DNA from: Candidatus Omnitrophota bacterium
Lineage (GTDB): Bacteria; Omnitrophota; Gorgyraeia; Zapsychrales; JAHFFX01
Direction of reading: 5' to 3'
Length of the DNA: 64,000 nt
NCBI GenBank assembly: GCA_023247725.1
Contig: JAHFFW010000008.1
Coordinates: forward strand, 7,359-71,358
The notes under the pieces were generated by a model. That model saw only the letters and a list, made by a program, of their open reading frames with translations, was not told where the DNA came from and did not search any database. Below, piece after piece: positions 50,470-64,000 of this stretch. Numbering within the stretch: position 1 is the stretch's first letter; each line of letters opens with the position of its first letter. Made by a program: the position numbers and the translations under genes.

Positions 50470-51729
50470 ATGGAAAAACTCGTGATCGAGGGAGGCCATG
50501 CCCTCAAAGGGGAAGTCAGGGTCAGCGGCTCAAAAAATGCCGCCTTGCCGGTTTTGGCGGCAACGTTATTGACCGACGACGAATGTGTGTTAAGGAATAT
50601 TCCCCGCCTGCGCGATACCATGACGATGGTGAAACTCTTGCGCTCTCTGGGAAAAACGATCGATATCGGAAAGGATTCGGTTACCGTCAGCAAAGGTCCC
50701 TCCAATCATGTTGCGGAGTATAAACTTGTGTCGACGATGCGGGGGTCATTTTGCGTCCTGGGTCCGCTTCTGGCGAAGCTTGGCAAGGCCAAGGTTTCTT
50801 TGCCGGGCGGATGCGTCATCGGCATCCGGCCGGTGGATTTGCACATCAAAGGCATCAAGGCCCTGGGCGCCAAAATTGATTTTGACAGCGGGTATGTGGT
50901 CGCCAGCGCCCACCGGCTCAAAGGCAATCACATGTATCTCGGCGGAGGTTTTGGTTCCTCGGTCCTGGCCACCGCGAATGTGATGATGGCGGCGACTTTG
51001 GCCGACGGAGAAACCATCATCGAATCAGCCGCCTGCGAACCCGAGATCGAAGACTTAGCCAATTTTCTCATGGCCATGGGGGCAAAGATCAAGGGAAAGG
51101 GAACCCCGCAGATTGCAGTCCAAGGCGTCAAGAAATTGCACGGGGCGAATTTTCGCATCAGTTCGGACCGAATCGAGGCCGGGACCTTCATCCTTCTGGC
51201 GGCGGCGTTGCGCAGCAACATCACGATTCGGGAAACGAACTTCATGCATCTTCTGGCGCTTCTGGATAAATTGGAGGAAGCCGGCATGAGATTCGAAAAA
51301 GAATACAATCTGATTCGTCTCAAATGCAGCCGGCATCTGAAACCGACCAGCATCACCACCTTTCCCTATCCTGGTTTTCCGACGGATTTGCAGGCCCAGT
51401 TCATGGCGCTTATGGCCATGACCCCGGGGGTGAGCGTCATCACCGATAAAGTTTATCCCGATCGGTTTATTCATATCGCGGAGCTCAACCGCATGGGGGC
51501 GAGCATCCGTCGGGAAGGCAGCAACGCGATTGTCGAAGGAGTCAAAACCCTTCACGGGGCTCCGGTCATGGCCTCGGATCTGCGGGCCTCGTCGGCGCTC
51601 ATCATCGCCGGGCTGGCGGCCAAGGGGAAGACCGAAATCCATCGCATCTATCATCTGGAGCGCGGTTACGAGAATCTCGACGAGAAATTGGCAACGATGG
51701 GGGCGAAAATTTATAGGGAAAAGGAATAG
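50470..51729 (+). CDS. murA: UDP-N-acetylglucosamine 1-carboxyvinyltransferase
   Basis: MEKLVIEGGHALKGEVRVSGSKNAALPVLAA is the canonical MurA N-terminus. 419 aa. Confidence 0.95.
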   Translation: MEKLVIEGGHALKGEVRVSGSKNAALPVLAATLLTDDECVLRNIPRLRDTMTMVKLLRSLGKTIDIGKDSVTVSKGPSNHVAEYKLVSTMRGSFCVLGPLLAKLGKAKVSLPGGCVIGIRPVDLHIKGIKALGAKIDFDSGYVVASAHRLKGNHMYLGGGFGSSVLATANVMMAATLADGETIIESAACEPEIEDLANFLMAMGAKIKGKGTPQIAVQGVKKLHGANFRISSDRIEAGTFILLAAALRSNITIRETNFMHLLALLDKLEEAGMRFEKEYNLIRLKCSRHLKPTSITTFPYPGFPTDLQAQFMALMAMTPGVSVITDKVYPDRFIHIAELNRMGASIRREGSNAIVEGVKTLHGAPVMASDLRASSALIIAGLAAKGKTEIHRIYHLERGYENLDEKLATMGAKIYREKE

Positions 51730-51914
51730 GGTTGAAAAGGATATGAGGGCAAGAAAACTTGATTCCTTGGGCGATCAAGCGCTGGAAGATTCCAAAAAAG
51801 GTAAATTTAAGGAATGATGAGGCATTTTGCCAGCCCATCATTTTGGGAATGTTACCATCATCTCCCTCGAAACGTTCAAAAATTAGCGGAAAAATTTTTT
51901 GAGAAGGCAGGGCC

Positions 51915-52463
51915 ATGGTCCAGATGACGACCTTTGCGGGTGGCAGGACGGGATCATGGCAAGTTGAGCATATCCGTGCCGTCATTGGTCCGCCATTGGA
52001 AATGGTCAAGCGCCTGGCCGTGGCTAAGGGCAAAGATTCCTCGAATCAAAACGCGGTATGGCGGCTGCGCGGCGTGACCAGTTATGAGCGGTATGTGCAT
52101 CGATCCGAACGAGAGCAGCTGGTAGCCCGCCAGCCTGAGCTTGGGCGGGTTGAGGCAACGCACGCCGCGCTCATCCCCATCAAAAAATCTGCCGCTTGGT
52201 GGAACTTGACTCAAGATGAGCGTCGGGAAATCTTCGAAGAGCAATCGCATCATATTGCCACCGGACTGCAATATCTCCCGGCGGTTGCCCGGCGCCTTTA
52301 CCACAGCCGCGATCTGGGCGAGCCGTTCGATTTTCTCACCTGGTTTGAGTATGCACCGGCGGATGCCTCTGCCTTTGAGGATCTGGTGCAAAGATTGCGT
52401 CGGACACCGGAGTGGAAATTCGTCGAGCGGGAGCTCGACATCCGGCTCAGCAAACGGGAGTAG
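51915..52463 (+). CDS. cld: Short (lineage-II, NwCld-like) chlorite dismutase-family haem protein
   Basis: 182 aa with TFAGG..., ALIPIKKSAAWW, SHHIATGLQYLPAVARRLYHSRDLGEPFDFLTWFEYAP and EWKFVERELDIRL. This is a recalled resemblance to short Cld proteins, not a search result. The gene is locally GC-rich. Confidence 0.55.
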   Translation: MVQMTTFAGGRTGSWQVEHIRAVIGPPLEMVKRLAVAKGKDSSNQNAVWRLRGVTSYERYVHRSEREQLVARQPELGRVEATHAALIPIKKSAAWWNLTQDERREIFEEQSHHIATGLQYLPAVARRLYHSRDLGEPFDFLTWFEYAPADASAFEDLVQRLRRTPEWKFVERELDIRLSKRE

Positions 52464-52711
52464 GTGGATGAGTGGAGACCTACGGCTGGCCGATGGCCAC
52501 AATATAGACGCACGATGGAAGAGCTGATTGAGGCTGTTGCTGGATGGTAATGGATGAAGCAATTAACCCGCCTAATCGCTTCATAATTTGAAGCGGTTAA
52601 ATTCCCGCCTTTTACCTTTTGGCATATAGATTTCAAAAAGTATAATGCGAAAGGTAAATTCCAAATTTCCCTAACTGTTGACAGTTATTTATAAGTGTAT
52701 ACGCTTAGGGA

Positions 52712-52753
52712 AATGTTCACTCAGGTGCTAATGTTCACTATTGAGTGAACATT
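52712..52753. promoter_or_regulatory. Operator-like repeat: AATGTTCACTCA direct copy plus palindrome AATGTTCACT-ATTG-AGTGAACATT
   Basis: Seen directly in the AT-rich spacer upstream of abiEi. Confidence 0.4.
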
Positions 52754-52875
52754 CCATCGATTTGCTAATCTTATACAATCTTATGTAGTCGAAATATAAG
52801 AAGCGTATAAAATCTGTGCACTTGTTAATAAGTGACGAGGTTTTCTACAGGCGAAAATTGCTACCCGAAAAAATC

Positions 52876-52914
52876 TTGACATTATGTCGCATAAATTATA
52901 TACTTTTTGCGACA
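52876..52914 (+). promoter_or_regulatory. Consensus sigma70 promoter TTGACA-17-TATACT with flanking inverted repeat TGTCGCA...TGCGACA, about 20 nt upstream of abiEi
   Basis: Perfect -35 and near-perfect -10 hexamers. The inverted repeat brackets the -10, consistent with an autoregulated operator. Confidence 0.55.
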
Positions 52915-52933
52915 ATAATAGTGAGGTATATTT

Positions 52934-53530
52934 ATGCAATATACTAATGATATTGTAGTTAACAGAATACATGGCCATGGTAGGGGATGGGTTTTTACGC
53001 CAAGCCATTTTTTTGACCTTGGAAGTCACTTTGCTGTAAGAAAAGCCCTTGAGAGGTTAGCGAAGCAGGGAACAATCCGGCGCCTTTCCCCAGGGCTTTA
53101 TGACTATCCCAGGCGCCATCCTGCGTTGGGAGATTTGGTTCCTAACTATGAGCAAATTGGTAAGGCATTGGCCGGACAGTATAAATTAAGGCTGCAACCT
53201 TCCGGAGCCTACGCTGCCAATCTTCTAGGTTTAACCGAGCAGGTTCCGGCCAAAATCGTTTTTTTGACTGATGGCCCCAATCGGAAATTAACTATCGGCA
53301 ATCAGCGAATCATCTTTAAAAGAACCACCCCCAAAAACATGGCGGCCGCAGGCCGTGTTAGCGGTTTAGTTATTCAGGCCTTACGCCATTTGGGAAAGAA
53401 TAATGTGGATGATGATACCATCGACAGGCTTAAAACGCGATTGAGTGATGATGACAAACAGCAGCTTCTCAAAGATATTTCGTGCGCTCCGGCTTGGATC
53501 GGCGCAATATTCAGAAAAATGGTGGAATAA
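52934..53530 (+). CDS. abiEi: AbiEi-family antitoxin/transcriptional regulator (type IV TA system, DUF6088-like)
   Basis: NRIHGHGRGWVFTPSHFFDLGS...LAKQGTIRRLSPGLYDYPR...LQPSGAYAANLLGLTEQVP matches the AbiEi family pattern. It is directly upstream of, and overlapping, a DUF1814 gene. Confidence 0.8.
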   Translation: MQYTNDIVVNRIHGHGRGWVFTPSHFFDLGSHFAVRKALERLAKQGTIRRLSPGLYDYPRRHPALGDLVPNYEQIGKALAGQYKLRLQPSGAYAANLLGLTEQVPAKIVFLTDGPNRKLTIGNQRIIFKRTTPKNMAAAGRVSGLVIQALRHLGKNNVDDDTIDRLKTRLSDDDKQQLLKDISCAPAWIGAIFRKMVE

Positions 53531-54558
53531 TGGATCGATTTGCAGTCTTGCCTGCTTCAGAGAAAATTCTTTATTTCGATACAATGGCCGGTAAACTTGG
53601 GATCTCGCCGGAGATGGTCGAGAAAGATTTTTGGGGTTGCTGGACACTGGAGAAACTTTTCACATTAAAGGATATTGGAGCGCACATCACATTTAAGGGC
53701 GGCACCTCGCTCTCCAAGTGCTACAACGCCATTGAACGTTTCTCGGAAGATGTTGATATTGCCATTGAAAGAAAATATCTGGAACATGGCAAAGATATTG
53801 AGCCGTCGGTTGATGTCAGCAATAAGGAAAATCAGCGACGCATCGAAGAATTGATGGCTTCCGCCAGGACAGCCATTCGCAAGCAGATTCTTCCGGAGTT
53901 ACGACGGCAAGCTGAAAAGATCCTTGGAAAGAGTGGTCAATGGTCGATAGATTTGGATCCCAAAGATCCGCTCGAGCAGACACTTCTGTTTGTTTTTCCA
54001 AAAGCTGTCATAAAAACGGATCGCGAATATGTAATGCCTATAGTTAAGATTGAGTTAGGCGCCCGTTCAGATGATTGGCCGGCGCAATCTGTTCATATCT
54101 TCCCCTACGTAGCTGAAGTTTTACATGATGCGTTAGTCGTTCAGCCCATCACCGTCAAGGTTTTATCGGCGGAGAGGACATTTTGGGAGAAGGCGATGAT
54201 CCTTCACCGGCTTTATCACTCTCCCGAAGAGAAGACTGTTTCAAAACGTATGTCACGGCATTATTATGATCTATATGCGATGAGTAAGGCTGGAATATTT
54301 GATAGGGCGCTTAAGGATGTTGGGTTGATGCGCAGTGTCGTTGAGTTCAATAGACTTTTCTTTCGATATTCTTGGCTAAATTATGACGAGGCCAAGCGCG
54401 GGACTTTCCGCTTGGTTCCTAAGGATGCTGAGCGGATTAAGAGCCTGAAAATTGACTACCGGCAAATGGAGCAAATGTTTTTCAAGGATCAACCGGCGTT
54501 TGATCGGATTATAGAAAGACTTAAAGAGATAGAAGATAAAATTAATGACCAAAAATAA
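53530..54558 (+). CDS. abiEii: AbiEii/AbiGii-family nucleotidyltransferase toxin (DUF1814)
   Basis: EKDFW...[23 protein letters not shown] is the DUF1814 signature. ATAATG overlap with abiEi. Confidence 0.85.
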
Positions 54559-54700
54559 ATCAACCGGCATCAAATCATGGCCATTGGATGACAGGCCAAG
54601 AGAGAAATTGCTTAAAAAAGGCGCGGACGCTTTGAGTAATTCTGAACTCTTGGCAATTTTGTTGCGCACGGGGAACCTAAAAGAAGAAGAGAGGACGTAA
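54545..54700 (+). pseudogene. radC: Remnant (51 aa) of a RadC-family (UPF0758/JAB) protein N-terminus, truncated at the hsdM start
   Basis: [43 protein letters not shown] is the canonical RadC N-terminal HhH region. It then diverges and stops in a TAATG overlap with hsdM. Confidence 0.6.
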
Positions 54701-56160
54701 TGTTTGAGCAAGTTTTCAAGAATATTGACGACATCCTTCACAAAGATGCAGGGTGCAGTAGCGAGCTTGATTATGTGGAGCAGACTTCATGGGTTCTCTT
54801 TCTGAAATATTTGGATGATCTTGAGAAAGACAAGAAGACCGCGGCCAAATTGGCGGGCAAGACGTATTCAAATATTATCGGTCCGGAATATCGTTGGGAT
54901 GTATGGGCAACGCCCAAAGACAATGATGGCAAGCTGGATCATCACAAAGCACTAACGGGCGATGACCTTAAAGATTTTGTTGACCACAAATTGTTTCCCT
55001 ATCTGAAAAAGTTTAAAACCAGCGCCCAGAGCCCCGACACCATTGAATACAAAATCGGCGAGATTTTCAGCGAACTTAAAAACAAAATCCAGAGCGGTTA
55101 CAATCTCCGCGAGGTCATCAACTTAATTGATCAGCTTCGTTTTCGTTCTCATGCCGAGAAGCATGAAATGTCGCATCTTTATGAAGACAAGATCAAGAAT
55201 ATGGGCAACGCCGGACGTAACGGCGGCGAATACTACACGCCCCGTCCGCTGATCAAAACGATTGTCAAGGTAGTTGCACCTGAAATCGGCAATAAAATTT
55301 ATGATGGTGCGGTCGGGTCAGCGGGCTTTTTGTGCGAAGCCTTTGAGTATCTTAAATCTCAAAAGAATCTAACAACCAAAGACGCGCAGACGCTTCAGAA
55401 AAACACTTTCTACGGCAAAGAAAAGAAATCCCTCGCCTATATCATCGGCACGATGAATATGATTCTGCACGGCATTGAAGCGCCCAATATTGTGCATACC
55501 AACACGCTGGCTGAAAACCTCGCTGATATTCAAGAGAAAGACCGTTATACAATCGTCCTTGCCAATCCGCCGTTCGGCGGTAAAGAACGAGCCGAGGTTC
55601 AGCAAAATTTTTCGATAAGAACCGGCGAAACCGCGTTTTTGTTTCTTCAACATTTTATTAAGATCTTGAAAGCCGGCGGCCGTGCGGGTGTAGTCATTAA
55701 GAATACATTTCTTTCCAATACTGACAATGCCTCGATCAGCCTGCGCAAACTACTTTTAGAAAGCTGTAATTTACACACGGTACTTGATCTTCCCGGCGGC
55801 ACATTCACCGGCGCAGGAGTCAAGACTGTGGTTTTGTCTTTTGAGAAAGGCACGTCGACCAAGAAAGTCTGGTTTTATCAACTTAACCTTGGCCGCAACC
55901 TCGGCAAGACCAACCCGCTCAATGAAAACGATCTGGCCGATTTTGTGAAATTGCAGAAATCAAAAGCGGATTCGGAAAATTCATGGACGGTCAATGTGGC
56001 GGATGTGGATAAGGTTACTTTCGATTTGTCCGTCAAGAATCCGCATAGAAAAGATGAAACGACTTTGCGCGAACCGAAGGAAATATTGGCTTCAATGAAA
56101 AAGCTGGATGAAGAGAATAAGGAAATAATGCAAGAAATCAGTCGGATAATAGGAGATTAA
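54700..56160 (+). CDS. hsdM: Type I restriction-modification system methyltransferase subunit (N6-adenine)
   Basis: HsdM N-terminal domain, SAM motif and LANPPFGGKE (NPPF). Confidence 0.93.
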   Translation: MFEQVFKNIDDILHKDAGCSSELDYVEQTSWVLFLKYLDDLEKDKKTAAKLAGKTYSNIIGPEYRWDVWATPKDNDGKLDHHKALTGDDLKDFVDHKLFPYLKKFKTSAQSPDTIEYKIGEIFSELKNKIQSGYNLREVINLIDQLRFRSHAEKHEMSHLYEDKIKNMGNAGRNGGEYYTPRPLIKTIVKVVAPEIGNKIYDGAVGSAGFLCEAFEYLKSQKNLTTKDAQTLQKNTFYGKEKKSLAYIIGTMNMILHGIEAPNIVHTNTLAENLADIQEKDRYTIVLANPPFGGKERAEVQQNFSIRTGETAFLFLQHFIKILKAGGRAGVVIKNTFLSNTDNASISLRKLLLESCNLHTVLDLPGGTFTGAGVKTVVLSFEKGTSTKKVWFYQLNLGRNLGKTNPLNENDLADFVKLQKSKADSENSWTVNVADVDKVTFDLSVKNPHRKDETTLREPKEILASMKKLDEENKEIMQEISRIIGD

Positions 56161-56181
56161 TCTTTCTAATCAACGAAGCGT

Positions 56182-57147
56182 ATGCCTCCAGAGAACTTTG
56201 AACAATTTAAAGCAAAGCATGAAGCATGGAAAAAGTGTCTTTCCGGTGAAGATCGCAATTCTGTGTTCAATCAAATCTTTCGGATGGTTTGGAATGCCGC
56301 AGTTTTTAAAATAATTAACGAGGCACGCAGGATTTCTCCGACAGATACAAAAGGTCAGATTAAAATTAATGGGATGGTGCATCATTTTTTAGACAGGTGC
56401 TTCTTTGACAGCCAGTTTCTGGCTGTTCGACGGTTGACAGATGCGGCATACACATTAGAGGATGCCAAGAAAGGGATATTTTCTTTGACTGCATTATTAA
56501 ATGATATGAAAGCAAATATCTCTCTAATGACTCGCGCAAATCTTTTCGCAGTTGAAAACCTTGAATATGATCCTACGGGAATTCAGCAACGAGAATTGCA
56601 ATATGCTTTTGAACAATCCAAAAATGGGAAAGGCGCATATTGGTCATCTTTTAAAGGAAGTAGTCATGACATAACGTCCAGACATGATCAGATTGACGTT
56701 CTTTGTGGAACATCCGCCGATCAGCGCAAGCCATCTGATACTATTCGGGGAGAAATCTTTGATTATTTACTTAAGCGGACAAAGGATGCTTCAGAAGACG
56801 TTAATCTGCACGTTAATAAATACATCGCTCATGCCGCAACGCCTGATAGCCGCGAATATTCTAAAGCAGGCGAGGTGTCTATTACTTTAGATCATTTATG
56901 GGGCGCGCATAAAGTAATTTGTCAGGTCGCTAATTTTGTTGATGTATATATGCTTTCGAGAGCCCATTATAGCTTCTTGCCAGTTCCGCAATATGACCAT
57001 TTTGAACATATTGATGAGTTTTTGGTTTCCGCAGAGGGAGTGGATGCTTTAAGTAACGCATGGCATCAATTTCAGAAAGACACAGATTCTTGGGCGTCAT
57101 GGGGAATGAAAGAGTTGCAGGAAGAAATATTGCAGAAAAATGAATAG
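56182..57147 (+). CDS. Unknown 321-aa protein embedded between hsdM and hsdS (candidate defence/Abi-type effector; no family recognised)
   Basis: Complete ORF, translationally coupled (8-nt overlap with hsdS), AT-richer than hsdM. No methylase, specificity-subunit or nuclease motifs were found by eye. Confidence 0.5.
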   Translation: MPPENFEQFKAKHEAWKKCLSGEDRNSVFNQIFRMVWNAAVFKIINEARRISPTDTKGQIKINGMVHHFLDRCFFDSQFLAVRRLTDAAYTLEDAKKGIFSLTALLNDMKANISLMTRANLFAVENLEYDPTGIQQRELQYAFEQSKNGKGAYWSSFKGSSHDITSRHDQIDVLCGTSADQRKPSDTIRGEIFDYLLKRTKDASEDVNLHVNKYIAHAATPDSREYSKAGEVSITLDHLWGAHKVICQVANFVDVYMLSRAHYSFLPVPQYDHFEHIDEFLVSAEGVDALSNAWHQFQKDTDSWASWGMKELQEEILQKNE

Positions 57148-58426
57148 AACAATTAAACAATTAGAGTCGAATCAGGCAAGCACTGCTTGGCAAACCAAAA
57201 CGCTTGGCGAGGCTTGCGAAGTCTTTGCCGATGGGGATTGGATAGAGAAGAAAGACCAAGCAACAAGCGGTATACGGCTTATACAGACTGGCAATATTGG
57301 GAATGGATATTTTTTAGATAGAGGTGAGAAAGCACGGTATATTTCAGAAGGTACATTTAAAAGATTGCGATGTACAGAAGTTTTGCCGGGTGATTGTTTG
57401 CTTTCCAGATTACCCGATCCAGTAGGAAGGGCAGGTCTTATCCCTGATACAGGGCAAAAAATGATTACTGCGGTTGATTGCACAATCATGCGTTTCAAAA
57501 AAGATACTTTGCCTAAATGGTTTATTTATTATTCTTTGTCTCCAGACTATCAAAACGAAATTAACAAAGAGGTCACTGGAGCGACACGTCAACGTATCAG
57601 CAGAAGTAATTTAGGCAATATTAAACTTCCAATCCCCCCGCTCCCCGAACAGAAACGGATTGTTAAGATTTTAGATGATGTTTTTGAAAAAACCGCCAAG
57701 GCCAAAGAAAATGCCGAGAAGAATCTGCAAAACACCCGGGAACTTTTTGAATCGTATTTGCAGGGTGTGTTTGCTGATTCTGGCGATGGATGGGAAGAAA
57801 AGAAGCTGGGGGATAACAATATTCTTGAAATTATCGATGGCGACCGAGGAGTTAATTATCCTGAGAAGTCGGATTTTCTAGATCGAGGTTATTGTCTTTT
57901 TCTGAATACTAAGAATGTACGTCCTGATGGGTTTAATTTTGATACAGCAATGTTTATTTCGAAAGAAAAAGATAATGCTTTACGCAAAGGGAAACTTCAG
58001 CGAAATGATGTAATCCTCACGACCAGAGGAACAATCGGTAATCTAGCTGTTTATGATAGCAACGTTAGTTATGAGAATATCAGAATCAATTCGGGTATGC
58101 TTGTTTTTAGACCGAAGGTAGAAAAATTATTGCCTTCTTTTCTCTTTGAGGTATTCCGGTCTGGAATTATGAAAAATCAAATTTCTCGGCATGTGTCGGG
58201 CGCGGCTCAGCCTCAATTACCGATTAAGACTTTGGTAAATTTTACGATTCCCGTGCCCAATAGTATCGATGAGCAAAAGAAAATCGTTGATCGCCTTAGA
58301 GAAATTTCAGCCGAAACCAAAAAACTCGAAGCTATCTATCAGCAAAAGCTCGCTAACTTGGAAGAGTTAAGAAAATCAATATTACAAAAAGCGTTCAATG
58401 GCGAACTTGTAGAGGCAAACGTATGA
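57140..58426 (+). CDS. hsdS: Type I R-M specificity subunit (two target-recognition domains)
   Basis: Conserved central and C-terminal HsdS repeats (RQRISRSNLGNIKLPIPPLPEQKRIVKILD...; LPIKTLVNFTIPVPNSIDEQKKIVDRL). Confidence 0.9.
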   Translation: MNRTIKQLESNQASTAWQTKTLGEACEVFADGDWIEKKDQATSGIRLIQTGNIGNGYFLDRGEKARYISEGTFKRLRCTEVLPGDCLLSRLPDPVGRAGLIPDTGQKMITAVDCTIMRFKKDTLPKWFIYYSLSPDYQNEINKEVTGATRQRISRSNLGNIKLPIPPLPEQKRIVKILDDVFEKTAKAKENAEKNLQNTRELFESYLQGVFADSGDGWEEKKLGDNNILEIIDGDRGVNYPEKSDFLDRGYCLFLNTKNVRPDGFNFDTAMFISKEKDNALRKGKLQRNDVILTTRGTIGNLAVYDSNVSYENIRINSGMLVFRPKVEKLLPSFLFEVFRSGIMKNQISRHVSGAAQPQLPIKTLVNFTIPVPNSIDEQKKIVDRLREISAETKKLEAIYQQKLANLEELRKSILQKAFNGELVEANV

Positions 58427-60795
58427 ACGAAGCTGAAACAAGAGCGGAACTGATTGATCCGAAACTCAAGGAAAGCGGTTGGGGCGTGGTTGAGGGCTCC
58501 AAAGTCCTTCGGGAATATCACATCACTGCTGGCAAAATCCAAGTTGGCGGGGGCCGGGCTAAGCCGCTTATTGCCGATTATGTTCTTGTCTTTCATGGCC
58601 GCAAGCTGGCCGCGATTGAAGCTAAAAGCGATGAAGAAGAAGTCGGCGAAGGTGTCGCACAGGCCAAAAATTACGCCGAAAAAATGTGTTTGGAAACGAC
58701 TTATGCCGCCAACGGCAAAGAGATTTATCAAGTTTGCATGAAGACCGGCAAGGAAGGCCCGGTTGCCAAATTCCCCACTCCGCAGGAACTCTGGAACAAA
58801 ACATTTGCCCAAGAGAATCAGTGGCGGGATAAATTCAGCCATGTGCCTTTTGAGGATGTTGGCGGTACCAAGTACGTCCGCTATTATCAGGAAATCGCCG
58901 TCAATAATACCATGTCTTCAATTGCCGACGGCAAACAGCGTATTCTACTGACACTCGCGACAGGTACGGGAAAGACTTTTATTGCTTTTCAGATTGCGTG
59001 GAAACTTTATCATGCCCGCTGGAATTTAAAGCGTGACGGCGCGCGCAGGCCGCGTATTTTGTTTCTGGCTGACAGAAATATTTTGGCTGATCAGGCATTC
59101 AATGATTTTTCATCCTTCCCCGAAGACGTGTTAGTGCGGATTAATCCTAAAGAAATCAGTAAAAAAGGAAGTGTGCCGACCAATGGAAGTATTTTCTTTA
59201 CCATCTTTCAAACATTTATGAGCGGCAAAAATAACACGCCATATTTCGGGGAATACCCAGCGGATTATTTTGACTTTATCATCATTGACGAATGCCATCG
59301 GGGCGGCGCCAACGACGAAGGCAACTGGCGAGGGATTTTAGAATATTTTTCGCCTGCTGTTCAACTGGGGTTGACCGCGACACCCAAACGCCGGGACAAT
59401 GTGGACACTTATCGCTATTTCGGCGATCCGGTTTATATTTATTCGCTTAAAGAAGGCATCAACGACGGATTTTTAACGCCGTTTAAGGTTAAACGGATCA
59501 AGACAACCCTAGACGATTATATTTACACATCCGACGATCAGATTGTTGAGGGTGAAGTTGAAGAAGGCAAGATTTATAAAGAGCCTGATTTCAATAAAAT
59601 TATTGAGATCAAAGAACGCGAAGCCAAACGGGTGAAGATATTTCTTTCTGAAATCAATCAGAATGAAAAGGCGATAGTTTTTTGTGCCAATCAAGACCAC
59701 GCGGCGGCGGTGCGGGATTTGATCAACCAGTATAAAAAAAGCCCAGAGCCAAATTACTGCGTGCGGGTTACCGCTAACGACGGCGCGTTAGGTGATCAAT
59801 ATTTGCGTGATTTTCGGGATAATGAAAAAACTATCCCGACGATTTTAACAACTTCACAAAAGCTGTCCACCGGCGTGGATGCCCGCAATATCCGTAACAT
59901 TATCCTTATGCGCCAGATTAATTCGATGATTGAGTTTAAACAGATTATTGGACGCGGCACACGATTATTCGATGGAAAAGAATATTTTACCATTTATGAT
60001 TTTGTTGACGCATATCATCATTTTGCTGATCCCGAATGGGACGGTGAGCCGATTGTTGAGGTCTGTTCTAAGTGTCTGGAGAATCCCTGTGTCTGCGAGA
60101 AAACACCGCCGCGTCCATGTCCTCGATGTGGACAGAGGCCTTGTGTATGTGAGAAACCGCCAGAACCGCCCTGTCCAAGATGCGGAAAAAATCCTTGCGC
60201 GTGTCCCAGAAAAGTGAAAATCAAATTGCGTGACGGCAAGGAGCGCGAAATTCAACATATGATCGCAACTTCTTTTTGGAGTGCAGACGGCAAGCCGATT
60301 TCAGCCGAAGAATTTTTGAAGGGTCTGTTTGGGAAACTGCCTGATTTTTTTAAAAGTGAAGATGAACTGCGCAAAATCTGGTCTAGTCCTATTACACGTA
60401 AAGCATTGCTCGAAAATCTCGCTTCTGCCGGATACGGCAAGGACGAATTGACTACTTTACAGAAATTAATTGATGCTGAAAAAAGTGATCTGTTTGATGT
60501 TATCGAGTTCGTCTCTTTTGCGTTGAAGCCGATTACTAGAGAAAAACGTGTTGCTTTGGCACAATTTAAAATTTTTGCAGGCTTGGGTGATAAACAAAAA
60601 GATTTTTTAGAATTTGTGCTTTCCAAATATATTGAAACCGGCGTTGAGGAATTGGATCAGGAAAAACTCCCAGATCTTTTGACGCTCAAATATCAAGCCA
60701 TCAGTGATGCGGAGGATATCCTGGGTGGTGTGGACAATATCCGCACGACGTTTATTGAGTTTCAGAAGTATTTATATGAGAAAGCTGTTGTGTGA
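58423..60795 (+). CDS. hsdR: Type I restriction enzyme R subunit with unusual tandem Cys4 knuckle insertion
   Basis: HSDR_N N-terminus (MNEAETRAELIDPKLKESGW), helicase motifs I GTGKTF, II DECH, III LGLTATP, and a C-terminal EcoEI_R_C-like domain. A 47-aa insert at 60064-60204 carries three CxxC...CxC units. Confidence 0.88.
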   Translation: MNEAETRAELIDPKLKESGWGVVEGSKVLREYHITAGKIQVGGGRAKPLIADYVLVFHGRKLAAIEAKSDEEEVGEGVAQAKNYAEKMCLETTYAANGKEIYQVCMKTGKEGPVAKFPTPQELWNKTFAQENQWRDKFSHVPFEDVGGTKYVRYYQEIAVNNTMSSIADGKQRILLTLATGTGKTFIAFQIAWKLYHARWNLKRDGARRPRILFLADRNILADQAFNDFSSFPEDVLVRINPKEISKKGSVPTNGSIFFTIFQTFMSGKNNTPYFGEYPADYFDFIIIDECHRGGANDEGNWRGILEYFSPAVQLGLTATPKRRDNVDTYRYFGDPVYIYSLKEGINDGFLTPFKVKRIKTTLDDYIYTSDDQIVEGEVEEGKIYKEPDFNKIIEIKEREAKRVKIFLSEINQNEKAIVFCANQDHAAAVRDLINQYKKSPEPNYCVRVTANDGALGDQYLRDFRDNEKTIPTILTTSQKLSTGVDARNIRNIILMRQINSMIEFKQIIGRGTRLFDGKEYFTIYDFVDAYHHFADPEWDGEPIVEVCSKCLENPCVCEKTPPRPCPRCGQRPCVCEKPPEPPCPRCGKNPCACPRKVKIKLRDGKEREIQHMIATSFWSADGKPISAEEFLKGLFGKLPDFFKSEDELRKIWSSPITRKALLENLASAGYGKDELTTLQKLIDAEKSDLFDVIEFVSFALKPITREKRVALAQFKIFAGLGDKQKDFLEFVLSKYIETGVEELDQEKLPDLLTLKYQAISDAEDILGGVDNIRTTFIEFQKYLYEKAVV

Positions 60796-60859
60796 TAGGC
60801 AAGGTTAGATACAAATACTTTCTGTTTAGCAAATATGTTGTTTAGGGTAAAATGAAATT

Positions 60860-61018
60860 ATGAGTCGAGTCACTGTAAAACCTGAAATGTTAAGCTGGGC
60901 TTGTGAAAGGTCTGGCCATAGCGCAGAAGATATGCGCAAAAGGTTCCCCAAGTTTGATCTTTGGAATCGTGGAGAAGCAAGCCCGACACTTAAAGAAAGG
61001 TTTTTAAACCGTTTCTGA
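60860..61018 (+). pseudogene. 52-aa remnant resembling the N-terminus of XRE-HTH/ImmA-IrrE-type regulators
   Basis: MSRVTVKPEMLSWACERSGHSAEDMRKRFPKFDLWNRGEASPTLKE resembles the N-termini of such regulators (recall only), then terminates. Confidence 0.35.
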
Positions 61019-61278
61019 CTTATACTTAGGAGTTCAAGAAGTTAGATTAGAAGTGGCAAAAGAGGACATTTCCGGTGGAACTTATTGAAGATGCAGACGA
61101 TATTTAGAAACGGTCTAAAGGCTTCTCGCTGGCTTCAAAGTAATGTCGCTCCGGTTTTTGATACAAAAGAGATTTTAAAAGCTAGTACAGAATTCTCCAA
61201 TATTGCGACGTTCTTCTTTCAGATTTTTTACATTCAATTCAAGATCAATAAACTCTTATCTCTTAATCAAAAATTGGT

Positions 61279-61890
61279 GTGAAGGTGGAAACTGAGAATC
61301 CCCGTATAGTTCTGGTAACAATTGGAATAATAGGAGGGGTTCTCTTAATTCAATGGTTTTCTAAAAGAAAAAAGCTTGAACAAGACTTATTAAATTATGG
61401 CGTCGAAATGCAGGCAAATGTCATCAAGAAAGGATGGGCATTCCGTGGCCTGCGAGATCTTCATATCCATTACGAAATCAACGGAAGAGAAGTCACTAAA
61501 GTCATTTCGGTAGATATTAGTCATGAGAATATAAAAAGTATGCCTATATTGATTGATCCCATGAACCCAAAAAGGGTTTTATATAATATGAGAAAGTTTG
61601 ATTTAAAAAAAGTCAGTGAAGATTCTGTTACCAATTTCAAAGAGAGATATGAAGCAAATAAAACTGATTATGATAAAGGTGCTGAAGAGGGATTCGAGGG
61701 GAAACCCATGAAGGAAAAGGAAAGTGCCGAATATATTCAAGGCTATGAAGATGGCGTTGAAGATCTTCATTACGACGAGGGATTTAAAGATGGATGTGAA
61801 GGGAAGCCTATGAAGGAAAATCCAAACGCTCAATACGAGGAAGGCTATAAAGATAGCATTGAAGATCGCCGTGAAGATGACAAAGAGTAA
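61279..61890 (+). CDS. Single-pass membrane protein (DUF3592-like N-terminal region) with acidic C-terminal repeats (EGFEGKPMKE..YxxGYEDG)
   Basis: GTG start, one TM helix, a VLIDPMNPKRVLY-type motif, and two approximately 25-aa repeats. Confidence 0.45.
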   Translation: MKVETENPRIVLVTIGIIGGVLLIQWFSKRKKLEQDLLNYGVEMQANVIKKGWAFRGLRDLHIHYEINGREVTKVISVDISHENIKSMPILIDPMNPKRVLYNMRKFDLKKVSEDSVTNFKERYEANKTDYDKGAEEGFEGKPMKEKESAEYIQGYEDGVEDLHYDEGFKDGCEGKPMKENPNAQYEEGYKDSIEDRREDDKE

Positions 61891-62104
61891 GGAGTTTATC
61901 CAACAGCAAGAATTGTGTTGATTACTCTGAAGAGAAATAGATGAATGTCATGATCATTCATCTCACAAATGAGATGGACACCTAAAAGATGGTTTCATAA
62001 ATGATTGATATGAATAAGGTTGAAAATCGTATTTTTATTGAGACCTACGGATGACCGTTGGTGCAAGTACCGTACGACGATTTTAGGGATTTTGAAGAGG
62101 ATAA

Positions 62105-64000
62105 ATGGCTATGGATAAAAGAGTTGTAAAAAAACAAATAATTTTGAGTGGGATTTTGGTTATGCTCTATTTATTGGCCTCTATCCATCCCGCCAATGCC
62201 CAACCTCAACAAAAAACCGTTGATGAGTTATTAACTCTTCAAGGACAAGAATTTTACCGACAAGCCAACCAGTTTGCTTCCCAATGTTTATGGCAGGAAT
62301 GTACCGGCCGTTTGCCGGAATTTTGGCGCCTTTTGGATCATCTCGAACAACAGACTGATAAAGATGAAAGTATTGAAAGCCTCTTAGCCACCCAGTACTT
62401 GGCCTCGGCAATTTTAAAATACGGTGGTAACGAAGATTATCAAAAACTTTTAGCCCTTTACGATACAGTTTCGTCCGAATCTCGTCGTCAGTCGCCATTT
62501 ATAGATTCGCTCAGTGCTTTTTGGATCAAGCAAGAGTTAACGAAAGTATTCAGTGAAGAAAGACCTAAGAAAATCACTTTTGTCAAAGGTAATTTTACAC
62601 TGCCGCCACAATTAGCTAATGCCAGTGAAGAATTAAAAAATACTTGGATGATGTATAAAGAAGTCATAACGACGTACGAAAATAAATTGGAAACTTATAA
62701 AGATAAAAAATGGATATACACACAAAACAGTTGGCCGGTTTTTTATGGAGTGATTGCAGATTTTCTCCATGATAAGAAAGAAAATGCTATAGGAAAGATG
62801 ACGCAGTTTGAATGGGGCGGTTGGTGCGGGACTGGAAGCGATACATTGTTTACTCCGAAGACGCGTACCATTTGGATGGCATTTTTAAAAGAGCGTAATT
62901 ATCCTTTGGCCTTGGGCGCGCTTTTATCCTACATGAATCAAGGGAGCAGAATGATGCTCAATGCCGATCAAGATTTTCTTTGGCAGAAGCAATTCATTGA
63001 ATGGTGTTGTTTCAACTGGGAAACACTTTTGGTGGGAGCGGTGTTAGACGGTCGTGCCGAATATCTTCGATTTTTGGGAACGTATGGTTCTCAAAAGACA
63101 GCGCAGTATTTAAGTTTGATGGGGGCGCTACCGATGGATAGTTGGACTAAAGAGACGTATTTGCGATCGGTAGCGGCTTTTATTACGCCGGGATGTCTAG
63201 TCGGTAATTACGGAACGGCCAGTTCTGCCGATATCACTCGTCAAGCCAAGAATGAAATTCCTCAAGAAACACAAAAGAAACTTTTGGATATTTTAACCTC
63301 GCCAGTCAACCCCGATATTGATAGCAATATGATGGATACAGTCAGTCACCTTTTAACTCCACTGTGTCGTCCGGAGACAAAAGAGTCGCTTAAAAAAATT
63401 TTACAATCACCGTATACTGAACCGCGCAAACGCGCAGTTATTGCTTTAGAGGCATTAGGCGAAAAGGTTGAGATTCCGATAGATCCCGGCCCTGTCCATT
63501 TTCGTCTGCTCGTTAATGGCACACCTTTAGCTAACCAAGATGTGGAATGGACGCTTGAACAAAAAGACCAGCAAGTGAGTAGTTCTGTTCACACGGATGA
63601 GAATGGTCAATTTAGTTTGCAAAGGAATTACTTGGTCGATCCAACCAGAAACTGGAAATTGATTGTTTCCTCTGGCCGCAACATGAAGAATATAAGGGAT
63701 GTATTCTTTAATTTCAAATCCGATTTACCGAAAAATTTTGACAAACCGATTGATATCCCACTCAAAACATCGGCGCTGACCTTAAGCCTTCATTTAAATC
63801 ATCCAGATGATTATTACAAAGATAAGCAGATGGGGATTCGCCTTCATTATAATGGCCCGGGTGGAGGAGGATTAGTCTATTTTCAGGCCGTTGGTGAAGA
63901 ATTTAAATTGCCTGTTACTTCAAAAATCACATTTCCACGTTTGGTATCTGGCGAATACTACATCACAATCTTCGTTCCCGGTTCAGCAATGTGGGCTCAA
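62105..64000 (+). CDS. Large secreted hypothetical protein (5' partial view, over 630 aa, continues beyond the window)
   Basis: 632 codons with no stop, from ATG 62105 to the window end. Signal peptide MAMDKRVVKKQIILSGILVMLYLLASIHPANAQ. About 38 % GC. It is absent from the ORF track only because the window contains no stop codon. Confidence 0.6.
   Translation, partial: MAMDKRVVKKQIILSGILVMLYLLASIHPANAQPQQKTVDELLTLQGQEFYRQANQFASQCLWQECTGRLPEFWRLLDHLEQQTDKDESIESLLATQYLASAILKYGGNEDYQKLLALYDTVSSESRRQSPFIDSLSAFWIKQELTKVFSEERPKKITFVKGNFTLPPQLANASEELKNTWMMYKEVITTYENKLETYKDKKWIYTQNSWPVFYGVIADFLHDKKENAIGKMTQFEWGGWCGTGSDTLFTPKTRTIWMAFLKERNYPLALGALLSYMNQGSRMMLNADQDFLWQKQFIEWCCFNWETLLVGAVLDGRAEYLRFLGTYGSQKTAQYLSLMGALPMDSWTKETYLRSVAAFITPGCLVGNYGTASSADITRQAKNEIPQETQKKLLDILTSPVNPDIDSNMMDTVSHLLTPLCRPETKESLKKILQSPYTEPRKRAVIALEALGEKVEIPIDPGPVHFRLLVNGTPLANQDVEWTLEQKDQQVSSSVHTDENGQFSLQRNYLVDPTRNWKLIVSSGRNMKNIRDVFFNFKSDLPKNFDKPIDIPLKTSALTLSLHLNHPDDYYKDKQMGIRLHYNGPGGGGLVYFQAVGEEFKLPVTSKITFPRLVSGEYYITIFVPGSAMWAQ

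Follow-up and report, generated by a model that had tools for sequence, protein, structure and literature searches.

Three cassettes between repeated miaB-type junctions in an Omnitrophota defence island, and a candidate serine recombinase system

We have analysed a stretch of 64,000 nt (the window) from a Candidatus Omnitrophota bacterium (assembly GCA_023247725.1, contig JAHFFW010000008.1) in which a horizontally acquired, largely defence-related genomic island begins after murA. Beyond its left 0.7 kb, made up of a spacer and the chlorite dismutase gene cld, this island consists of three cassettes arrayed head to tail, ca. 17 kb in all and divided by four copies of one recombination junction. 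We consider it likely that the cassettes belong to a system that inserts at the 5' end of the tRNA-modification gene miaB by means of a large serine recombinase (LSR), and that the array described here sits in an ectopic, attB-like fragment of that gene.

The island between murA and trpG

Coordinates are those of the 64-kb window or, where marked composite, of the window extended with contig L001 to 71.5 kb in total. A MurA-based scan with one genome per species gave 19 Omnitrophota loci (65-85% MurA identity), 18 of them with downstream sequence, and in all 18 of these informative relatives murA is followed directly by trpG-trpD with a gap of 3-175 nt. An insertion of 17,856 bp between murA and trpG, from 51730 to composite ~69585, is thereby confirmed. 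A previous reading of the window from its letters alone (the sequence-only reading) had placed the start of an accessory, largely defence island after murA, with the right-hand end outside the window, and had named a conserved gene order in relatives as the observation that would speak against it. The order of the island genes is not conserved in them, and the right end was recovered on L001, a contig of the same population that shares 7,731 nt with the window, 2 of them mismatched, and extends ca. 7.5 kb beyond it. The limits and parts of the island are as follows:

50470..51729, + strand: murA (PF00275), the core gene that borders the island on the left
51730..51914, no strand: murA-cld spacer; the left limit of the inserted DNA lies somewhere within it
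52475, + strand: junction A, just after cld (extent 52472..52552)
52.5-62.05 kb: cassette 1, with AbiE, a RadC stub, a type IB restriction-modification (R-M) operon with a HEPN_AbiU2 gene, and small open reading frames (ORFs)
62040, + strand: junction B, before the secreted-protein gene (extent 61940..62119)
62.05-65.02 kb: cassette 2, with the secreted protein and a MerR-type helix-turn-helix (HTH) gene
65007 composite, + strand: junction C, after the first HTH gene
65.02-69.55 kb: cassette 3, with an Avs8/PD-lambda-4-like STAND NTPase (predicted) and the second HTH gene
69536 composite, + strand: junction D, after the second HTH gene

The GC content is 0.50 across positions 1-51729 and 0.36-0.47 from ~52.5 kb to the end of the window. 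Measured against core chunks of equal size, tetranucleotide usage departs from the core by 32 standard deviations (SD) in module 1 (GC 0.42), 12.5 SD in module 2 (GC 0.41) and 18 SD in module 3 (GC 0.45), and it returns to core values at trpGD beyond the island (GC 0.515, -0.3 SD). The exception is cld, with a GC of 0.58 and a murA-like GC at third codon positions of 0.645, vs. 0.33-0.51 for the island genes. The foreign composition anticipated by the sequence-only reading, cld excepted, thus holds. Several known defence systems are clustered here, namely AbiE, type I R-M, HEPN_AbiU2 and PD-Lambda-4/Avs8.

The window comes from a metagenome assembly and the island contains repeats, at which a mis-assembly might have joined it to the murA contig. 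However, the murA-cld-AbiE-hsdM join was seen on two further contigs, the hsdS-to-trpD stretch on another, and an 86-kb contig holds both murA and the second HTH gene. As other assemblies carry identical joins, we regard such a chimera as extremely improbable. Within the same population polA is one 856-aa gene on the 86-kb contig and two genes (518 and 321 aa) on L003 (1656-4226), which is a frameshift or strain variant.

The island is divided by a 22-nt motif with four copies in the 71.5 kb, all of them on the + strand and intergenic, and none elsewhere; the junction copies themselves are placed at 52476, 62032, 64989 and 69520. A junction profile from other genomes finds only these copies, A to D, in the composite sequence, and recognizes junction A with E 2e-7 even though it was outside the training set. 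Junction A is composed of a 15-nt remnant of a miaB left arm (GTGGAGACCTACGGC), the putative TG crossover and a right half, the R-box (AGRWPQYRRTMEELIEAVAGW*). In junction B a P arm of ca. 110 nt without HTH gene, containing a conserved ...ATTCATC...GGACAC...CATAA block and a miaB start (MNKVENRIFIETYG), precedes the TG and the R-box DDRWCKYRTTILGILKRINGYG*. Leftwards from the motif, at which the similarity stops, junctions C and D have 624 bp in common, and their HTH genes (73% protein identity) fall within this stretch. B and C share 120 bp from 45 nt left of the core rightwards, with 46 nt identical. The first ca. 40 nt of the R-box of junction C are also found in another genome (L085:9005). 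Read from left to right, the four junctions appear as B-O-P', P-O-P', P-O-P' and P-O-B', the pattern that would be expected for three tandem elements at one site.

Successive insertions had been proposed by the sequence-only reading on the strength of two gene remnants. Serial insertion is supported, but because four copies of a recombination junction, which had gone unnoticed, divide the island, and not because of the gene stubs. The same reading had suggested a search for att repeats and a neighbouring integrase: no att repeats were found at the murA-side end of the island, the four direct junction copies being inside it, and no integrase was found in or adjoining the island, the likely recombinase being present only in related arrays elsewhere. 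The spacer at 51730-51914 has no similarity to the murA-trpG spacers of the relatives and no match to the junction profile, which also detected no junction upstream of cld.

An alternative would be a generic defence hotspot, in which unrelated elements accumulated after murA at different times and by different mechanisms, the HTH genes and repeats being duplicated regulatory modules. The RadC stub and the mixed composition of module 1 would fit such a history, as would the lack of an integrase or tRNA gene nearby. However, the four junctions agree with ca. 75 copies elsewhere in polarity and in their internal break point, and the murA-trpG site is not a hotspot, since it was never occupied in relatives. 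We find this explanation very hard to sustain.

The junction family, its probable miaB target and a candidate recombinase

We have examined ca. 90 Omnitrophota loci around homologues of the HTH protein, which are numerous and nearly confined to this phylum. The orientation of the HTH gene is constant, and there are often two or three copies per locus with different genes between them. The array adjoins an intact miaB (named MiaB by NCBI in close relatives) in 24 related loci, with the HTH gene directly upstream in 22 non-redundant ones, at a distance of 80-170 nt. The related loci contain 76 unique junction copies, usually upstream of intact miaB, and 127 of the 137 matches to the N-terminal peptide motif of miaB (93 loci; junctions, intact genes and a few unrelated sequences) lie on the + strand. 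The motif is in fact the start of miaB, reading MNNVPKKVFIQTWG/CQMNEYD in L085, and every internal copy has a promoter-like block and the first miaB codons up to a Gly, followed by the TG and then by a switch to the R-box. The conserved block that follows the HTH gene and precedes the miaB start (...ATTCATC..ACAGTTTTAGACA...CATAAG...ATG) resembles a promoter with an operator, a role that the P arm might well play.

Three MiaB loci (L177, L178 and L179) were chosen independently of the HTH gene. L179 is an empty site, with core genes followed by miaB; L177 has no HTH gene upstream of miaB; and L178 has one three-gene cassette between 220-bp direct repeats (89% identical) that end at ...GGATG, the left copy being followed by an R-box. 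With no HTH gene as core neighbour of miaB in these unbiased loci, that possibility is ruled out and the gene must be element-borne. The arrays of L087-L092 (junction at L087 6829) and L093 (17576) end without an intact miaB in the sequence examined, a Na/H exchanger or MarR gene coming next, and it is possible that ectopic or very long arrays are common.

The position of the exchange can be narrowed down by comparing loci. In two pairs of them the cassette is 99.5-99.7% identical behind unrelated left arms, and identity begins at TG(G/A)CCG after the Gly codon; where a junction copy and an intact miaB have a common left arm, they diverge within a few bases of the TG point. These observations speak for an exchange within a few bases and against one anywhere along the long common arms. 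Homologous recombination of a circular or linear DNA bearing the HTH gene and the miaB 5' segment with the resident copy, either Campbell-type or by double crossover and with the recombinase genes as mere passengers, could draw on these long repeated arms (220 bp in L178, 624 bp in C vs. D), on the two HTH copies of L124, which are 99% identical, and on the many cassettes without recombinase. It would have difficulty, however, with identical cassettes on unrelated left arms that switch exactly at the TG with no donor arm carried over, and with the recurrence of the same R-box families in distant genomes, where the left arms before them differ greatly. Nor does it give any reason for R-boxes to be recombinase tails with a kept reading frame (see below), and we consider it unlikely.

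Two of the related loci encode full LSRs of 570 aa each (L108:1121-2827 and L143:822-2558; PF00239, PF07508 and PF13408), the nearest solved relatives of which are the TP901-1 and SPbeta integrases. Both ORFs cross the junction, one base off the miaB frame, and end 19-25 codons into the R-box. L126 and L145 also have remnants of the LSR C-terminus upstream of junctions, and L129 has an N-terminal fragment. When all unique R-boxes are read in the LSR frame, 66/76 are open to a stop 10-32 codons past the crossover, and in 47/76 the crossover is directly followed by Arg-Trp, junctions B and C being among them; the tails in this frame are DDRWCKYRTTILGILKRINGYG* for junction B, AGRWCKYRTTILGILKRLNGYHVEG* for junction C and VDRWCKYRVMILGILKLLNDGDPKS* for the L143 enzyme. 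Judged by this homology, the R-box is the 3' end of an LSR gene and attP would lie inside that gene, which explains why the R-box peptide is conserved despite stops in the miaB frame and without a conserved fold. A leader peptide had been considered for this small ORF before it proved to be the recombinase C-terminus. L108 also has an inverted partial recombinase C-terminus with a junction (7-225, - strand; …KKIYIRTFG*PLV…) ca. 900 bp upstream of the full gene, and such an inverted site pair could allow inversion.

A different enzyme acting in trans might be responsible, for instance a tyrosine recombinase or an undescribed enzyme, the LSR being only one user of the site. One array locus has a XerD-like gene (L127 213-1097; PF00589, E 5e-54), and symmetric substrates and products would sooner be expected of tyrosine recombinases or of systems resembling integrons. 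However, the XerD-like gene was found only once and not next to a junction, the search for a conserved attC-type hairpin gave nothing, and the R-box shares homology with the tail of the LSR, all of which makes this possibility a slim one. An integron was rejected, as no IntI or tyrosine recombinase was found adjoining the arrays and RNAalifold gave no conserved structure in 28 aligned junctions. A structured RNA, either an attC-like hairpin or a riboswitch, fared no better, with chance-level Rfam matches only at E 1 on the island and L001 and the same null RNAalifold result. Readings of the junction as a sigma-54 promoter or a dif/Xer-like site had the wrong spacing and a poor match by eye, and a phage origin was set aside because the HTH profile has no match in a viral contig collection. 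A Pfam census of 94 large cargo proteins from related arrays detected no recurrent recombinase, and the minus-strand ORFs examined in these arrays are ordinary insertion sequence transposases or unrelated genes.

The HTH protein could also be set aside as recombinase on account of its fold. Its confident model (pLDDT 87) consists of a long helix at the N-terminus and a winged HTH of the MerR type like that of RacA, NmlR, GlnR and BldC, and there is no catalytic domain. The protein might be a regulator or a directionality factor.

Putting this together, we propose that attB is the sequence for approximately residues 5-22 of MiaB and that an LSR would catalyse the exchange at the TG just past the conserved Gly codon in front of the first cluster cysteine. 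The attP site would lie within the 3' end of the LSR gene; its right half, the R-box, would encode the last 19-25 LSR residues, and its left half would substitute the first miaB codons, usually behind a promoter-like block and often with the MerR-type HTH gene. Each insertion would leave miaB intact and regenerate a target-like site, and co-oriented cassettes would therefore pile up in tandem. Most cassettes, including all three described here, would have lost the recombinase and would require mobilisation in trans, like recombinase-less SCC-like cassettes (SCC, staphylococcal cassette chromosome).

The target gene that an SCC-like array would be expected to adjoin is represented here by a 22-codon miaB-like fragment next to trpG, and there is no miaB in the 71.5 kb. 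The left arm of junction A agrees with L179's native miaB at 12/12 positions. The right arm of junction D reads WPMNTYDSKQKSS* in the miaB frame (WPMNTYDSK) and stops after 3 codons in the LSR frame, as do the intact L142 copy and L108:5408, two other miaB-type arms, for which reason we take it to be miaB-type as well. When the two outer half-sites are joined (GTGGAGACCTACGGC-TG-GCCGATGAACACGTATGACTCC), they give a mimic of miaB codons 5-22 of ca. 50 bp, the size of a serine-recombinase attB. A short miaB fragment between cld and trpG would thus have been the ectopic attB for the three cassettes.

Several points weigh against this proposal. Neither the island nor the 64-kb window region examined contains a recombinase of any kind, a full LSR is present in only 2 of ca. 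75 non-redundant loci, and the link between LSR and junction rests on these few intact cases together with the tail homology. The LSRs were located with XerD and gamma-delta resolvase sequences serving only as bait, and the matches were confirmed by Pfam. No circular or excised form of a cassette was seen. The direction in which LSRs act depends on attP and attB having distinct half-sites, and here the integration products would resemble their substrates, with the same left halves, which is unusual for LSRs. This genome's own miaB locus did not turn up in the 71.5 kb examined, and the proposal leaves unexplained how a miaB fragment of ca. 50 bp and cld arrived between murA and trpG. Still, we think that an LSR cassette system at the 5' end of miaB is probably behind the array. 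The broader version, a phylum-wide Omnitrophota "cassette chromosome" at this site, with an LSR gene split by its own attP and the array in the window as a recombinase-less copy in a decoy attB, is a tentative suggestion to which we would give somewhat less than even chances. If true, the last ca. 20 residues of the LSR would come from the downstream cassette, and each insertion would give the miaB promoter to new cargo.

Genes of the island

The genes left of the array and in module 1, with the regions between them, are the following:

51915..52463, + strand: cld, clade-2 (short, dimeric-type) chlorite dismutase (predicted), 182 aa (PF06778)
52464-52933: spacer between cld and AbiEi, 470 bp
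52611..52904, + strand: presumed AbiE promoter/operator region (pattern matches only)
52934-53530, + strand: AbiEi (PADLOC E 3e-71; PF19570 and PF08843 for the AbiE pair)
53530-54558, + strand: AbiEii nucleotidyltransferase (PADLOC E 9e-98)
54545-54700, + strand: RadC N-terminal stub, 51 aa (UPF0758_N, E 2e-17)
54700..60795, + strand: type IB R-M operon (PADLOC MTase_I E 1e-162, Specificity_I, REase_I)
54700-56160, + strand: hsdM, type IB R-M
56182-57147, + strand: HEPN_AbiU2-family gene, 321 aa, embedded in the R-M operon
57140-58426, + strand: hsdS (two-domain)
58423-60795, + strand: hsdR, EcoAI-type (NF046051 EcoAI/FtnUII R subunit, 814 bits vs. a cut-off of 550)
60860..61018, + strand: 52-aa ORF, read earlier as an XRE/ImmA remnant; identity unconfirmed
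61279..61890, + strand: 203-aa membrane protein with one N-terminal hydrophobic segment, also on two other contigs

Family matches support the gene calls of the sequence-only reading for Cld, AbiE, the RadC stub, type I R-M and the membrane and secreted proteins. Its statement that every recognisable gene is defence- or mobile-associated went too far, as Cld is an ordinary enzyme of host-like composition and no defence match was obtained for the secreted and membrane proteins. Cld is assigned to the clade-2 chlorite dismutases by its full-length similarity to solved short Clds (PDB 9gtj, E 3e-68; NwCld 3qpi, E 7e-66; residues 4-180). The gene lies outside the cassette array and was not found at the murA-trpG position in any relative.

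The 470-bp AT-rich spacer had been interpreted as a promoter and operator region. Its left part (52476-52552) is in fact junction, and the interpretation is kept for the remainder, where there are two sigma-70-like matches, 11/12 each, at 52619-52646 and 52876-52904, and palindromes at 52611-52658, 52665-52714 and 52713-52752, the last with a perfect 11-nt inverted repeat (52713-52723 / 52742-52752). AbiEi autoregulation via inverted repeats is known for the AbiE family. AbiEi lies directly upstream of AbiEii with a one-base overlap, and by their profile matches the two genes form a type IV toxin-antitoxin / abortive-infection pair; AbiEi genes behind a type-2 R-box were also found in L113 and L165. 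The RadC stub covers only positions 1-31 of the 218-position TIGR00608. Of the two gene remnants in the sequence-only reading this one stands, while the XRE/ImmA remnant has no family or structure match: the 52-aa ORF gave nothing in Pfam, NCBIfam or PDB even at E 10.

HsdM, the two-domain HsdS and HsdR are all in one operon, as in the EcoAI (IB) family. HsdR has three tandem Cys-rich units (CSKCLENPCVCEK / CPRCGQRPCVCEK / CPRCGKNPCACPRK) at residues ~553-600 (window 60079-60222), between the helicase and EcoEI_R_C domains, with the look of a zinc-binding insert. PF18734 (HEPN_AbiU2) is present in ca. 1/3 of the 118 listed homologues of the embedded 321-aa protein, and some homologues (P0223, P0226, P0146) are fused to an N-terminal XRE-type HTH or a basic-secretory-protein domain. 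For the 203-aa protein there was no PADLOC or NCBIfam match.

Modules 2 and 3 continue past the end of the window:

62111 to composite 64429, + strand: 772-aa secreted protein of module 2, with a signal-peptide-like N-terminus (MAMDKRVVKKQIILSGILVMLYLLASIHPANA)
On L001, past the secreted protein and in this order: 109-aa HTH gene, 1253-aa protein, 141-aa HTH gene, trpG, trpD

The secreted protein, which runs past the window end, matches a DUF6795 / Big_1-like Ig domain only and has no defence match in PADLOC; a 105-aa antisense ORF inside its gene (62181-62498, - strand) matches no family and is probably spurious. The 1253-aa protein (L001 8894-12655) matches PD-Lambda-4_A (PDLC03991, E 2e-46) over residues 7-1251, and this full-length profile match identifies it as a putative Avs8/PD-lambda-4-like STAND NTPase. 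PD-lambda-4 is now named Avs8, a STAND NTPase that senses a phage capsid protein.

The cargo of the related arrays (L095 5505-9967; Pfam census) includes a Gabija-like pair (OLD-TOPRIM ATPase and UvrD helicase), DruA, a TOTE-system primase, a KAP NTPase and DUF4062/Fic-like proteins, together with many proteins without family.

Known cassette systems and the place of this one

By itself, this is an ordinary defence island of known systems, and it is the junction architecture that is apparently undescribed; no published description of a miaB cassette system was found in the literature searched. The closest known elements are SCC/SCCmec, the tandem SCC-like defence cassettes, which are moved by Ccr recombinases, and the Enterococcus cassette chromosome (PMC11470126; PMC6222049). 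As in SCC, there is a large serine recombinase (here only in related arrays), the target lies within one end of a conserved gene for RNA modification and the frame of this gene is kept, direct site repeats are found at each cassette boundary, and tandem composite arrays are formed. As in SCC too, many cassettes are recombinase-less and would be movable in trans, and the cargo is rich in R-M and anti-phage systems. Unlike SCC, which uses the 3' end of rlmH, the target is the miaB 5' end, and for this reason the element must supply a promoter and the first codons. Other differences are the putative attP inside the recombinase gene, with the downstream cassette supplying the last ca. 20 residues of the enzyme, the MerR-type HTH gene beside the site in many cassettes, the phylum (Omnitrophota) and, in the present case, the ectopic position of the array.

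Insertion at a 5' end is not new in itself. SXT inserts at the 5' end of prfC, replacing the displaced end. In a similar way, dusA-targeting islands insert at the 5' end of a conserved tRNA-modification gene and replace this end with their own sequence (PMC4482086), as proposed here for miaB. However, dusA and SXT islands have a tyrosine integrase beside the site and are usually single, while here a serine recombinase would act, the elements as a rule occur in arrays, and most of their units are enzyme-less.

There is precedent as well for an attP inside the integrase gene, in the tyrosine integrases of the phage Mx8 (intP) and the archaeal virus SSV1 (int). The likeness is that integration alters the 3' end of the integrase gene, but here with a serine enzyme and cassette arrays. 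Integron arrays and CALINs (clusters of attC sites lacking integron-integrases) are also similar in having co-oriented cassettes between recombination sites, often without recombinase; unlike them, the arrays described here have no IntI and no attC-type hairpin, and their cassettes are multi-gene with their own promoter-like block.

The design would be unusual in combining an attP in the recombinase gene, replacement of the 5' end of the target and an HTH gene beside the site. It provides a candidate new serine integrase with a defined miaB target of ca. 50 bp and att sites, and a natural case for how serine recombinases build tandem arrays. The junction sequence can serve as a marker for defence cargo in Omnitrophota metagenomes, and the related arrays are a possible source of new defence genes. 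Altogether, these observations point to a previously undescribed route by which anti-phage genes may be collected and exchanged in an uncultivated and poorly known phylum.

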